Below, piece after piece: positions 40,143-43,380 of a stretch of DNA of 64,000 nucleotides. Under the pieces are notes generated by a model. It was not told where the DNA came from and did no database searches. It worked only from the letters and a program-made list of their open reading frames with translations. The stretch spans positions 12,850 through 76,849 of the forward strand of contig DHGX01000001.1 of NCBI GenBank assembly GCA_002402995.1. The letters run 5' to 3'. The stretch comes from Patescibacteria group bacterium UBA4787 (lineage in GTDB: Bacteria; Patescibacteriota; Patescibacteriia; UBA2591; UBA4787). Position 1 is the first letter of the stretch; each line of letters opens with the position of its first letter. The translations under genes and the position numbers were made by a program.

Positions 40143-40226
40143 ATGCCGTCGGCCGGACTCGAACCGGCAAGAGCTCACGCTCAACAGATTTTAAGTCTGT
40201 CGTGTATACCAATTCCACCACGACGG
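40143..40226 (-). tRNA. tRNA-Leu (anticodon TAA), long variable arm
   Basis: Acceptor GCCGTCG/CGACGGC, anticodon stem ACAGA/TCTGT with loop CTTAAAA, T loop TTCGAGT. Confidence 0.8.
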
Positions 40227-40289
40227 CAATAATAATGAATTATGAATTAGGAATTTAGATACTGACTTCTATTTTCTACATTACTATTT

Positions 40290-40680
40290 TCTAAATTCTA
40301 GTTTATAACAACAAATTTGTAAATTTTTACAATATCTTTCTGAAGTTTAGAGGTGTCTATTCCTCTTTTTCGCAATATCTTTTCTACCAACCCCAGAGCT
40401 TTAAGATATTTTTGTTGGTTTTTCTTTAATTATGATTAGTCAAATTAGTTAAACGATTAAAAAACTTCTGCCAAAAAGTATATTTCTTCTGACACTCCTT
40501 GGCATATTTCAAATTCAAATCTTTAAAATTCTCTTGGTATCTACTTAATATTTTTAATAATTTGCTCTTTTTTTCTTCGTCGAAAAAATGGAGGTTTTTT
40601 AATATACCTTCTTTTTCTTCGTTAGTTAGAAGAAAAGTATCCGTGACTAATAATTCTAAATTTAAATTGACATTGTCCAT
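40290..40680 (-). pseudogene. decayed partial duplicate of the 3' end of the adjacent 823-aa gene
   Basis: The 84-aa ORF 40426..40680 (LTNEEKEGILKNLHFFDEEK) is paralogous to residues ~700-730 of the large protein (LSDDERDKIFKDHFLFLISENK). DNA 40300-40420 aligns to 40693-40830. Confidence 0.4.
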
Positions 40681-40692
40681 TTTGTTGTTTAA

Positions 40693-43164
40693 TTACTTGT
40701 TAATAATTTTTCTGAGTTTGGCGATATCCTTTTGCAAATTAGAGGTATCTACTCCCTTTTTTCTTAAAACCTTCTCAACAATAACCAGTGATTTAAGATA
40801 TTTCTGCTGATTCTCCGGCGACCAAGATTTTATTTTCGCTTCCCATCTCACCGGATCTTCAAAAAGCGAATTGATAAGAGAAACGAAAAATTCTGACGGG
40901 TTTGAAAACGGATGACCCTCAGCAGCTGGATCATCGAAAAATTTATTTTCTGAAATTAAAAATAAAAAATGGTCTTTAAAAATTTTATCTCTTTCGTCGT
41001 CGGACAAATCTTTATTTTCCAAAACTTTTTCTAATAACCTCGACAGGTCTTCGCTTTCTTGCTTAAACAACAACGCAAAAGCACCGTGCTCAGAACAATA
41101 ATGGTCGTCCGGGTTTGTCGTATTTGGTCCCAGACTCCAATCAAGCTTGTGCAGAGCCTCATGACGACCAACTAAACGATAAATAACTTTAGCGCCACGC
41201 AATGCTCGACCCTCTACCACCAAAGACCTGACTGTTAAAAATATTGATCTCTCATTTTTGGCGCCGTTGAAATAGGCGTTATCGACATCTATGTCGCCAC
41301 CTACATAAAAACTTCTAATGTTCCAATTATGATTAAAATATTCTTCTAGTTGGGTGATGCCATATGCCGTTTCTTCCAATGCTTTCATATATTGTTCTCT
41401 GCCTATACTCTGAAAGGTTTGCAAGGTATCTATGTCAGTAACATAAAAATTCAAATTATAGGCCTCCTTGTTTGCCTTATTCTCGACGGAAATATTGCCC
41501 ATATAAAATGCCGGCATTTGCTCAAACGAAAGCTTGCCCGCTATTTTCCCTTTCTCGTTTTTTATAACTAAATCAACAATCTGATCTTGTGAAACTGCGT
41601 CAACCGAACCACCGACATTATGATCTTGCCCAAGCTCAAATTTCTGAACATTTTTTTGACCTGAATCGTTATATGATGACTGGAGGCGACTATTTATTTC
41701 TACGCTGTATCCCCTGGGTAAAGAAAATTTTAAACCATACAGCTTGCCGTCAATTTTGATGGGTTGTTTTAATTGATTAACCCCTAGGTCTAAATTAAAA
41801 TTATAATAAATACCGCCCGACAAGACACAAATTCCTAAATTTATGTTTTGAATCAAATTTGCGCCTTTTTCTAAATTTCCTCTTTCTCCTTCGGTTAAAA
41901 GATCGTATTTTTTCTGGTCAACTGATATCTTACAATCATTCGCCAAAACAGCCACATTATTTAAATTTTCTATATTTTTATCATTTTTAATCTGCGCAAC
42001 AATCTGGTTAAGAATATAAGTATTTATTTGTTCGGGAGTACAATCCTTATAGTCTTCAAATTTTTGGGGATCGAAGGGAACCCTAATTTGCGCTTTAATC
42101 GTTTTATTTTTCAAATCGAGAATAGTGAAGGTCAAAATAACATTTGGCGCTTTATCATTCATACACGGATTGGAAATAATCACATAACGATTGTTATAGG
42201 GCTTTCGGGTTAAAGTCTCGGGGAGTAATTGACTCTGCGTAAATTTATTAGATAGATATTCATTTTTTCTGGACTCGCTCCACCACTCCCAATAAGCTGT
42301 AAAATAATTATTTTGTTCGTAAAATTTTTCTAGTTCATTCAGTTTGGCAATTATCCTCGGATCGTCAGAATAGTCGTTAGTATTCTCCATGCCTCTTAGA
42401 AAGACGGCGTTTTCGTTCCATTCTGAATCACTAGTATATTGGAATATTTCCAACAAGTCTCTAACAGAAAAATATAAATAACTGCTGTTCAATTTATCAT
42501 TTTTTTCGACGGGAAACTCTTTAACTAGTCCCGCCTCTATCTTAGAATCTAAAGATGGGGTTTTAATCTTTGACTCCATCTGCGATTCTGGAGTTTGTTT
42601 TGTTTCAGGCTCTTTTTGTCCGACTTCCTGGGCAAATAATTTTTGGGATTTGATTGCCGAAGTCGTAGACAACATTAAAAATAGAGTCGCTAAGCGCAAA
42701 AATCTATTTCCGGCGATCTGATTAAAAATAATATTGCGCTTTTGGGTTGATTCTATCACCGGAACTTCGTTTACCGGCAAAACTTCGTGAGGCGACGTAT
42801 TAACTTGCGCCACTAAATTTTTTGCCGAGGATTGAGCCAATGTGACCACATCTTCTTTCTTGACAATGAAACTTTCTTCCGATAATTTCTGACGGCCGAG
42901 CTTGGTTAATTCGGTAAGTTCGTTTTTATATTTATCTAAAATTTTTCTTTGTTCCAATTTCATATCCAATTCTGTCGCGGCGAAAATCTCAACTAATTTC
43001 AATCTCGTTTCCGAGTCTAGATCGGGATCTCTCGTTACCGCGTCAAAAATATTGTCCGCTATTCTTACAAGCGCTTCAAGGTGTTCAAAATTCTGTTGAT
43101 CTTTCTCCGGTTGCTCCGGCGAAGACTCAACAAAAGATTTTAATTCTATTTCTTTATTCATCAC
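40693..43164 (-). CDS. large membrane-anchored protein (823 aa) with C-terminal HExxH zinc-metallopeptidase-like motif, hypothetical
   Basis: Coiled-coil N-terminus, hydrophobic anchor FLRLATLFLMLSTTSAI, a long Asn/Lys-rich middle region, then LVGRHEALHKLDW...DDHYCSEHGAF. Confidence 0.55.
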   Translation of the reverse strand: MMNKEIELKSFVESSPEQPEKDQQNFEHLEALVRIADNIFDAVTRDPDLDSETRLKLVEIFAATELDMKLEQRKILDKYKNELTELTKLGRQKLSEESFIVKKEDVVTLAQSSAKNLVAQVNTSPHEVLPVNEVPVIESTQKRNIIFNQIAGNRFLRLATLFLMLSTTSAIKSQKLFAQEVGQKEPETKQTPESQMESKIKTPSLDSKIEAGLVKEFPVEKNDKLNSSYLYFSVRDLLEIFQYTSDSEWNENAVFLRGMENTNDYSDDPRIIAKLNELEKFYEQNNYFTAYWEWWSESRKNEYLSNKFTQSQLLPETLTRKPYNNRYVIISNPCMNDKAPNVILTFTILDLKNKTIKAQIRVPFDPQKFEDYKDCTPEQINTYILNQIVAQIKNDKNIENLNNVAVLANDCKISVDQKKYDLLTEGERGNLEKGANLIQNINLGICVLSGGIYYNFNLDLGVNQLKQPIKIDGKLYGLKFSLPRGYSVEINSRLQSSYNDSGQKNVQKFELGQDHNVGGSVDAVSQDQIVDLVIKNEKGKIAGKLSFEQMPAFYMGNISVENKANKEAYNLNFYVTDIDTLQTFQSIGREQYMKALEETAYGITQLEEYFNHNWNIRSFYVGGDIDVDNAYFNGAKNERSIFLTVRSLVVEGRALRGAKVIYRLVGRHEALHKLDWSLGPNTTNPDDHYCSEHGAFALLFKQESEDLSRLLEKVLENKDLSDDERDKIFKDHFLFLISENKFFDDPAAEGHPFSNPSEFFVSLINSLFEDPVRWEAKIKSWSPENQQKYLKSLVIVEKVLRKKGVDTSNLQKDIAKLRKIINK

Positions 43165-43305
43165 AAATTATTAATTAAAACAAGAGAGAGACTGCCTAAA
43201 GATCCCTTCATAATGCCGAATATTTTTTCTGATTATATTTCCGGGTGCTTTCTGCTTTCATAGACTCACCCAATTATTAAACAAATTTGAAAAAGGCTGT
43301 AAAAA

Positions 43306-43380
43306 TGGAGCGGGCGATGGGATTCGCACCCACGACCTTCTCCTTGGCAAGGAGACGTTCTACTCCTGAACTACACCCGC
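43306..43380 (-). tRNA. tRNA-Gly (anticodon GCC), CCA encoded
   Basis: Acceptor GCGGGTG/CGCCCGC, anticodon stem TCTCC/GGAGA with loop TTGCCAA, T loop TGCGAAT. Confidence 0.8.

Follow-up and report, generated by a model that had tools for sequence, protein, structure and literature searches.

A putative gluzincin-like, membrane-anchored metallopeptidase gene and the stub of its deleted paralog between two tRNA genes of a Patescibacteria group bacterium

The subject of this work is a locus of Patescibacteria group bacterium UBA4787 that lies between the genes for tRNA-Leu(TAA) and tRNA-Gly(GCC) on contig DHGX01000001.1. It was analysed as part of a stretch of 64,000 nucleotides (nt) of that contig, hereafter the window. 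An initial annotation, made from the letters alone, had read the locus as an accessory island with a single large gene, whose product ends in an HExxH motif, and with a decayed duplicate of the tail of that gene. We found two genes and a pseudogene stub between the tRNA genes, not a single gene. Taking all evidence together, we consider it probable that the large gene (gene A) is a native gene for an unclassified gluzincin-like, membrane-anchored extracytoplasmic metallopeptidase, and that the stub was left when its tandem paralog (paralog B) was deleted.

RESULTS

Gene A encodes a putative membrane-anchored, zincin-like protein

The annotated open reading frame (ORF) of 823 amino acids (aa) was confirmed at 40693-43164 on the minus strand. 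In the window it starts with GTG at 43164, and the database versions of the protein start from ATG at 43161 (822 aa). At its full length, gene A had no Pfam or NCBIfam match above threshold. The gene and the parts of its product are as follows.

40693..43164, minus: gene A, predicted membrane-anchored zincin-like protein of 823 aa (ORF list; ratio of nonsynonymous to synonymous divergence, dN/dS, against orthologs)
42715..43164, minus: residues 1-150, Glu/Leu/Lys-rich N-terminal domain, 33% identical to the N-terminus of paralog B
42655..42705, minus: residues 154-170 (RFLRLATLFLMLSTTSA), putative membrane anchor, the most hydrophobic 17-mer
41935..42624, minus: residues 181-410, putative extracytoplasmic insert, absent from paralog B in the alignment
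41440..41934, minus: residues 411-575, beta-sandwich domain of the AlphaFold2 model
40696..41439, minus: residues 576-823, zincin-like catalytic domain (AlphaFold2 models, Foldseek, sub-threshold Pfam M90)
41149..41163, minus: HEALH, residues 668-672, putative zinc ligands H668 and H672 and catalytic base E669; invariant, on model helix 658-677
40870..40917, minus: G750-H751-x6-E758-F-F-V...N765, putative "glutamate helix"; invariant in 19 sequences, model helix 756-768

The one membrane anchor that had been annotated was recovered as a single hydrophobic segment at ~154-170, of moderate hydropathy: its 17-residue Kyte-Doolittle maximum was 1.55, and no 19-residue window exceeded 1.2. A hydrophobic segment preceded by Arg and Lys was found at ~150-175 in all full-length family members (17-residue Kyte-Doolittle 1.5-1.9), and the distant member P0016 had an N-terminal signal peptide in place of the anchor. 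The Arg and Lys residues before the anchor suggest that residues 1-150 are cytoplasmic, and the conserved anchor together with the signal peptide of P0016 makes a surface location of the gene A product plausible. The insert at 181-410 was kept in distant relatives of ~790-820 aa, and the profile covered P0006, P0007 and P0011 over their full length. The part of the protein that had been described as an Asn/Lys-rich region without domains turned out to be at least partly structured, with residues ~411-575 forming a confident beta-sandwich in the model.

The catalytic domain of a small family carries an invariant HExxH signature

A word-indexed search of 5.8 billion proteins retrieved the gene A protein and two orthologs. 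An exhaustive hidden Markov model search of 1.84 billion representatives gave 16 clusters, of which six were further full-length relatives (E-values between 1e-72 and 4e-39) and the remainder a fringe that matched in the C-terminal part only. All family members were unnamed or "hypothetical", most clusters were singletons, and the reference-genome scan gave one species representative only. Judging from the sequences retrieved, the family is confined to Patescibacteria among the members of identifiable source.

Gene A contains one HExxH motif, HEALH at 668-672, where ~0.01 would be expected by chance in a protein with 10 His. The HExxH of the initial annotation thus stood: it was invariant in 16 catalytic domains that diverge to ~25% identity. 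Nine columns of these domains were invariant (F610, H668, E669, H672, E739, G750, H751, E758 and N765), and G750, H751, E758 and N765 did not vary in any of the 19 sequences. As its signature, the family has G-x-H-E-x-x-H and, 48-88 residues on, G-H-x6-E-[FL]-[FA]-[AV]-[ST]-x-x-N. The EXXA-type motif reads EFFV in gene A and EFFA in the majority of members, and a partly conserved "[DE]NA[FY]F" is located ~39 residues before HExxH. Conservation within the family is highest in the C-terminal domain.

The Glu of the SEHG segment (E692) had been proposed as the third zinc ligand. This residue was ruled out, being Asp in the 78%-identical ortholog P0002, Cys in paralog B and not conserved family-wide. 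From the alignment and the model, the best candidate for the third ligand appears to be E758, which lies 86 residues after H672.

One distant member, P0013 (L020 5001-6737, GCA_964462235.1), kept the GHx6E...N motif and reads "AYHNLVQ" in place of HExxH; its sequence marks it as a likely pseudopeptidase. The P0013 gene follows an 88-aa ORF and a gene resembling DUF8128 and type IV secretion system coupling proteins.

Fold and profile searches point to gluzincins

AlphaFold2 was run with a 19-sequence alignment. The two-domain model (ma3897c9f7cb0, residues 409-823) had a predicted local distance difference test score (pLDDT) of 89.6 and a predicted template modelling score of 0.88. It consisted of the beta-sandwich (~411-575) and then an alpha/beta-plus-helical domain, in which helix 658-677 carried HExxH and E758 was among the first residues of helix 756-768. 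The catalytic domain modelled alone had a pLDDT of 85.3.

The models were compared by Foldseek with 350,542 PDB chains. For the two-domain model, the top 18 matches were all M1-family gluzincins (IRAP, ERAP1/2, PfA-M1, APN and EryP), the five best of which had E-values of 2.8e-4 to 8.3e-4 and probabilities of 0.92-0.97; ranks 22 and 26 were taken by anthrax lethal factor (LF). When the catalytic domain was searched by itself, M1 peptidases or LF made up 49 of the top 50 matches, with a best E-value of 0.029 and a template modelling (TM) score of ~0.3.

In the Pfam scans of C-terminal sequences or consensuses, Peptidase_M90 appeared in four of nine; in three of these it was the only or the highest-ranking family, and in one it came second. 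It scored 12.6 bits (E 0.11) with gene A, 17.4 bits (E 0.0035) with paralog B, and 13.5 and 12.0 bits (E 0.054 and 0.16) with consensus sequences; the match always covered the HExxH-to-Glu part of the profile. Weak PDB profile matches to a peptidoglycan deacetylase (E ~0.5) were noise. As had been proposed for a zincin, the fold matches were almost exclusively to gluzincins, but they were weak and passed no family threshold. Because HExxH is invariant down to ~25% identity, lies on a model helix and belongs to a domain whose fold matches are almost all gluzincins, a zincin-like active site is the reading that we favour.

Gene A resembles the M90, M34 and M1 peptidases and falls outside all three

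In MtfA and LF, a Tyr positioned seven residues before the Glu (Tyr728 in LF) stabilises the transition state. His is a known alternative stabiliser in gluzincins such as thermolysin and neprilysin. The gene A family resembles Escherichia coli MtfA (b1976; M90, PF06167) in having the HEXXH and EXXA pair. MtfA reads IIHEVAHKLD...DAYAASDPAECFAVLSE, so that its "HEVAHKLD" corresponds to "HEALHKLD" of gene A, and its downstream E-x-x-A helix, "PAECFAV", corresponds to "EFFAS" or "EFFVS" here. Moreover, a conserved residue is placed exactly seven positions before the Glu in both, namely Tyr204 in MtfA (E211 numbering) and H751 in gene A. However, gene A has His where MtfA has Tyr, and the HExxH-to-Glu spacing is 86 in gene A and ~52-92 in the family compared to 59 in MtfA. 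MtfA is a soluble cytoplasmic protein of ~265 aa that binds Mlc, whereas gene A encodes 823 aa with a putative anchor and a beta-sandwich and has a partner gene. Membership in M90 was ruled out by scores of 12-17 bits against a cut-off of 26.2 and an hhalign probability of 6%; a weak affinity remains. The zinc ligands of MtfA are H148, H152 and E211, provided by the HEXXH and EXXA motifs (PMC13482132), and the MtfA site has been called "closely related" to that of LF, in which H686, H690 and E735 bind zinc and E687 is the base (PMC5668564).

LF itself (MEROPS M34) is likewise a gluzincin with a Glu ligand far downstream of HExxH, and LF chains recurred in the fold matches (ranks 20-50 for the catalytic domain alone). 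Nevertheless, these matches had E-values of 0.02-0.4 and TM-scores of ~0.33, and there was no ATLF Pfam match. Gene A has neither a protective-antigen-binding domain nor a toxin context, and carries His for the Tyr of LF. The M1 aminopeptidases (ERAP1/2, IRAP, APN, PfA-M1, LTA4H and EryP) were the best structural matches of the gene A model, and their N-terminal beta-sandwich is followed by a thermolysin-like HExxH catalytic domain in the same order as in gene A. However, the TM-scores were only 0.24-0.31, gene A had no Peptidase_M1 Pfam match, the HExxH-x18-E spacing is not kept (E692 is variable), and both the GxMEN motif and the C-terminal ARM/HEAT domain of M1 are absent from gene A.

As far as sequence and model allow the comparison, the motif logic of gene A is closest to MtfA/M90 and LF/M34, and its fold and domain order are closest to the M1 aminopeptidases. 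Gene A falls outside M90, M34 and M1 alike, and is therefore placed in an unclassified gluzincin-like family. The gluzincin-type active site predicted here is of a known kind; the His-for-Tyr signature, the putative membrane anchor and the small partner gene would be new.

The stub is the remnant of a deleted tandem paralog

Two further elements are located between gene A and tRNA-Leu(TAA).

40426..40680, minus: gene for a small helical partner protein of 84 aa, starting 12 nt after gene A, conserved in relatives
40298..40420, minus: pseudogene stub, the last 40 codons and the stop of paralog B (NQQKYLKALGLVEKILRKRGIDTSKLQKDIVKIYKFVVIN*), from collinearity with L002

The DNA similarity that had been described as a decayed tail duplicate is real, but it represents the end of a deleted paralog and not a ~400-bp copy of the gene A tail. 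A 400-bp duplicate (40290-40680) was ruled out, as only 89-120 bp at 40301-40420 were related, of which 89 bp were significant. The significant stretch, 40332-40420, matched 40724-40812 with 73% identity over 89 bp (E 8e-11; 0 of 300 shuffles equalled the score), and it sits downstream of the 84-aa ORF and outside it. In frame, the stub reads NQQKYLKALGLVEKILRKRGIDTSKLQKDIVKIYKFVVIN, while the tail of gene A reads NQQKYLKSLVIVEKVLRKKGVDTSNLQKDIAKLRKIINK. An intact paralog B (P0004, 619 aa) ends in ...DIVKIYKFVKID*, which matches the distinctive end of the stub.

Paralog B was carried by L002, in a longer version by L007 and L015, and by NCBI JBBTUI010000047.1 ("Patescibacteria group bacterium H41-bin211_1"); these are from Hainich groundwater. 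The gene order of the L007 type is tRNA-Gly, gene A (821 aa), the 84-aa ORF, paralog B, tRNA-Leu(TAA) and tRNA-Leu(TAG). Window 42693..40423 was collinear with L002 1..2260, a shared stretch that runs across gene A and the small ORF and ends ~10 nt into paralog B. A second shared stretch, 80% identical, starts where ~140 nt of paralog B are left (window 40437..40139, L002 3970..4298), and the intervening ~1.7 kb (L002 ~2261-3969) was missing from the window. Since collinearity holds to the left and right of the gap, this ~1.7 kb must have been deleted in the window. CTAAAGA microhomology was present on both sides of the deleted segment; furthermore, the ATG of paralog B is ATA in the window, and an extra A breaks the frame.

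The stub shared 34 of 40 aa with the tail of paralog B, with a proportion of synonymous differences (pS) of 0.39. In contrast, pS between the stub and gene A's own tail was 0.76, that is, synonymously saturated. The identity to the paralog B tail, the flanking collinearity with L002 and the saturation against the gene A tail establish, at the level of sequence, that the stub is the leftover 3' end of a deleted tandem paralog and not a copy of the gene A tail. The ancestral order in the lineage was gene A, the small gene and paralog B, and a ~1.7-kb deletion flanked by microhomology removed paralog B in the window, sparing its last 40 codons.

Paralog B was likewise lost from L001 and L014, whose gene A orthologs are 78-79% identical. 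L001 keeps a stub of 36 bp only (window 40339..40304), which spans the -35 hexamer of a promoter-like TTTACA-17-TAGAAT site. Possibly, the 3' end of paralog B survived because it harbours this site.

The 84-aa ORF is a conserved gene of its own

The 84-aa ORF had been taken for a paralog of gene A residues ~700-730. This relationship was rejected (BLASTP E = 4.4), and the ORF proved to be an independent conserved gene. It was 82-87% identical in relatives, above the conservation of gene A itself, and its dN/dS was 0.04-0.09 even where paralog B has been lost. In L007, the 84-aa ORF and the start of paralog B share 8 nt. Homologs of ~80 aa were located directly upstream of the large gene, abutting or overlapping it, in seven other contigs (L009-L012 and L016-L018). 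The small ORFs of the family aligned without gaps, with 12 invariant positions, and their homology was supported by hhalign (E 1e-6, probability 91%) and BLASTP (E 1e-10).

A database-wide search with the small-ORF profile gave 12 clusters only, all of 41-84 aa, and the 84-aa protein had no match in Pfam, NCBIfam, PADLOC or PHROGs. In the very distant members L019 and L020, an ORF of 80 or 88 aa lies ~10 nt upstream of the large gene; its homology to the small-ORF family was not demonstrable (E 0.29 and 0.1).

These sequence comparisons indicate that the 84-aa ORF is a genuine gene. It used to be the upstream partner of paralog B and was orphaned by the deletion. Because homologs of the small ORF adjoin the start of the large gene across distant members, the conserved unit of the family is read as a gene for a small ~80-aa protein followed by the gene for the large protein. 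The product, a small helical and probably cytoplasmic protein, presumably serves gene A now, because the N-terminal 150 residues of gene A are 33% identical to those of paralog B. It could plausibly bind the cytoplasmic N-domain as a regulator, assembly factor or signalling partner.

The 84-aa gene has a GC content of 25% compared to 39% for the window, the lowest value in the analysis, which may reflect its Lys/Glu/Asn-rich helical composition rather than a foreign origin. Small GIY-YIG nuclease ORFs (82-83 aa) adjoin the pair of small ORF and zincin gene at L009 5196-5447 and L016 4415-4663, once upstream and once downstream of it. Ahead of the pair, both L016 and L017 have a beta-propeller-like gene of ~328 aa.

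Gene A is native to its lineage

The order FtsH, YkuD, tRNA-Gly, gene A, small ORF, tRNA-Leu, tRNA-Leu was common to the window (and L003), L001, L007 and L014, with a synonymous divergence (dS) of ~0.7-1.1 among these syntenic lineages. The presence of the gene between the same tRNAs in relatives had been put forward as a check on the island, and gene A was indeed present there in L001, L003, L007 and L014. The dN/dS of gene A against its orthologs was 0.14-0.16. Compared with the window, its z-scores were -0.55 for GC and -0.33 for GC at third codon positions (GC3), and its codon usage was the seventh most typical of 40 ORFs.

There was no integrase, recombinase or transposase ORF between the tRNAs, and no attachment-site (att)-like repeat at the locus, where the direct repeats were short AT-rich matches and the known stub only. 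Gene A, paralog B and the small ORF matched no phage or defence family in PADLOC and PHROGs. A metagenome scan anchored on a 44-nt segment of tRNA-Leu(TAA) gave three loci only. Among the loci compared, L013 has no gene A, but its gene order is unrelated (IF-2, RbfA, tRNA-Cys), and it thus provides no informative empty site. On this comparative evidence, gene A is functional and has been inherited vertically within a narrow groundwater lineage of Patescibacteria (candidate phyla radiation).

Borders of the locus and neighbouring indels

The annotated tRNA flanks were both recovered by ARAGORN and Rfam on the minus strand. In the 38-46 kb part of the window, Rfam gave three tRNAs and no other match.

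43306..43380, minus: tRNA-Gly(GCC), upstream border (ARAGORN and Rfam, 65 bits)
40143..40228, minus: tRNA-Leu(TAA), downstream border (ARAGORN and Rfam)
39953..40038, minus: tRNA-Leu(TAG) (ARAGORN and Rfam); the variable segment starts past it
43232..43261, minus: promoter-like site ATGAAA-18-TATAAT, 10/12, between tRNA-Gly and gene A, a consensus match only
40295..40323, minus: promoter-like site TTTACA-17-TAGAAT, 10/12, inside the stub and upstream of tRNA-Leu(TAA), a consensus match only

The tRNA-Gly(GCC) gene was 100% identical in L001 and was found at the equivalent position in L001, L003 and L007; tRNA-Leu(TAA) had its equivalent position in L001, L003, L007 and L014. Confidence in the promoter-like sites is low, since 21 were counted in the region against 12.7 expected.

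Other indels were observed close to the locus. Of the YkuD L,D-transpeptidase gene, just the last 57 codons are left in the window (44151-44324, minus). The comparison with L001 (8172-8825) showed that ~760 bp (L001 7890-8651), with the first ~160 YkuD codons, is missing, which makes this truncation a second deletion scar, <1.2 kb from gene A. The spacer of the tRNA-Leu pair is 104 bp in the window (40039-40142) compared to ~600 bp in L001, L007 and L014. In L001 (13006-13616) it encodes a 172-aa ORF, and its L007 counterpart lies at 5402-6008; this is a third indel at the locus.

Past tRNA-Leu(TAG), the genes of L007 map to window 31820-33268 at 92-94% identity, and ~6.5 kb of the window (~33800-39700, minus) has no counterpart in L007. 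This extra segment encodes an XRE-type helix-turn-helix protein (39492-39689), a 535-aa protein with a zinc ribbon and transmembrane segments (37880-39487), and an 811-aa and a 311-aa ORF without Pfam match. At the place of this segment, adjoining tRNA-Leu(TAG), L001 has a serine recombinase. The variable, integration-prone part of the region thus looks like the DNA past tRNA-Leu(TAG), and not gene A. Elsewhere in the window, beside tRNA-Asn (60064-60139), 24 aa encoded at 60134-60205 shared 75% identity with the C-terminus of the serine recombinase of L001 (E 2e-5), and L014 3350-3415 matched window 60116-60181 at 90%; by its sequence, the 60134-60205 stretch is possibly what remains of an att-like site or of the end of a recombinase, here next to another tRNA. 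Finally, where the window has one double ABC-ATPase ORF of 483 aa (31817-33268, minus), L007 has two ORFs (203 aa, 7613-8224; 232 aa, 8366-9064). The cause would be either a split or frameshift of the gene in the metagenome-assembled genome or an assembly error.

DISCUSSION

From the observed motif conservation, retrieved folds, purifying selection, synteny and deletion history, we infer the following for the topology of the gene A product, its zinc binding, its proteolysis and the role of its partner. The product is most likely a single-pass membrane protein with a ~150-aa cytoplasmic helical N-terminus, the anchor and an extracytoplasmic part, the latter made up of the insert, the beta-sandwich and then a C-terminal domain of the gluzincin-type zinc metallopeptidases. 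H668 and H672 of the HExxH helix and E758 of the downstream helix would bind zinc, and E669 would act as the general base that activates water. The invariant H751, seven positions before E758, would stabilise the transition state in place of the Tyr of MtfA and LF. The proposal of a protease thus holds in outline for the zincin-like C-terminus and the surface location, and fails for the SEHG ligand and for the island cargo.

Several observations weigh against this assignment. There was no strong single fold match (TM-scores 0.24-0.35, root-mean-square deviation 10-19 Å), the catalytic domain alone had no Foldseek PDB match at E <= 0.001, and MtfA structures were not among the top 50 fold matches. 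No Pfam or NCBIfam cut-off was passed (M90 at most 17.4 bits against 26.2), M90 matched one of 16 members scanned individually, and hhalign against E. coli MtfA aligned only HExxHKLD (14 columns), with a probability of 6%. A PDB sequence search with the family profiles gave nothing meaningful. In addition, a second invariant Glu, E739, offers an alternative zinc ligand, the gene A anchor is only moderately hydrophobic, and the family member P0013 has no HExxH. It can be argued from the missing thresholds and the weak folds (TM ~0.3) that the HExxH domain is not a peptidase at all, but a pseudoenzyme, a binding module or a domain of other chemistry, and that the protein is an adhesin, receptor or signalling protein. 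P0013 lost HExxH yet kept the GHx6E motif, and therefore non-catalytic roles would exist in the family; a cytoplasmic N-domain with a small partner likewise suggests signalling. Nevertheless, pseudoenzymes usually lose catalytic residues, whereas the full gluzincin set (two His, the catalytic Glu, the helix Glu and the transition-state His) was invariant in the other 16 members, and every recognisable structural or profile match was to hydrolytic gluzincins. As for other chemistry, HExxH enzymes that are non-hydrolytic exist (PMC12636437), the alpha-ketoglutarate-dependent HExxH peptide-modifying enzymes being an example; the NCBIfam scan gave no family for gene A, the coverage of such enzymes by that library not being established. 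We therefore regard a non-peptidase as unlikely, although it deserves to be kept in mind.

Two other explanations concern the locus as a whole. A horizontally acquired, variable island between the tRNAs, carrying a secreted or surface protease effector, would agree with the tRNA genes on both sides, with the extreme rarity and patchiness of the family (16 clusters among 1.84 billion representatives), with a more distant relative, L013, that has tRNA-Leu(TAA) without the gene, with the serine recombinase beside tRNA-Leu(TAG) in L001, and with the several indels nearby. However, the same order between the same tRNAs in four lineages at a dS of 0.7-1.1 largely refutes such an island as judged from synteny. 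The locus itself contains no integrase, transposase or att-like repeat, its base composition (GC and GC3) and codon usage do not stand out within the window, and no phage or defence family was matched. Furthermore, the recombinase and the variable genes sit past tRNA-Leu(TAG) and not between the tRNAs, and L013, whose gene order is wholly different, is not an empty site. We consider acquisition as an island quite improbable. Still less credit is given to a polymorphic toxin-immunity pair, in which gene A and the 84-aa ORF would be toxin and immunity protein and the stub an orphan or displaced toxin C-terminus, as in contact-dependent inhibition and Rhs systems. A large exported protein, a small ORF within 12 nt and then a fragment that resembles the C-terminal end of the large gene do bear a superficial resemblance to the orphan C-terminal arrays known in polymorphic toxin systems (PMC3482391). 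Nevertheless, the C-terminal domain is the most conserved region and has no variable tip, the stub corresponds to the end of paralog B, which L007 carries intact and at full length, and not to a toxin-tip cassette, the small ORF is upstream of the large gene elsewhere in the family, and there was no toxin, immunity, secretion-domain or PADLOC match. A native, gluzincin-like gene next to the remnant of its paralog accordingly remains the preferred explanation.

For the annotation of such loci, the lessons are that a "duplicate" was a pseudogene stub, that the 84-aa ORF was a real gene, and that tRNA flanks were here no mark of an island. The locus represents a clean, dated case of gene loss in a reduced genome, in which one of two paralogs was deleted and a 40-codon stub was left, and two more deletion scars lie within 5 kb. 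If the protease reading is true, gene A and its relatives would be a new, very rare gluzincin branch, set apart by its catalytic signature and by the small partner gene that it conserves. Patescibacteria surface proteins are thought to mediate host attachment and nutrient scavenging and, to our knowledge, are almost entirely uncharacterised. Tentatively, and with less confidence than in the peptidase assignment itself, it may be proposed that gene A and its relatives form an undescribed gluzincin family, essentially of Patescibacteria, with the signature HExxH...G-H-x6-E-x-x-A...N and His at the transition-state position. Its members would be extracytoplasmic proteases with an obligatory cytoplasmic partner of ~80 aa, to which they are coupled by a single membrane helix and a helical domain in the cytoplasm; together, the two would form a two-component transmembrane module of regulated proteolysis or signalling. 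Such a module, if true, could bear on the episymbiotic, peptide-scavenging lifestyle.

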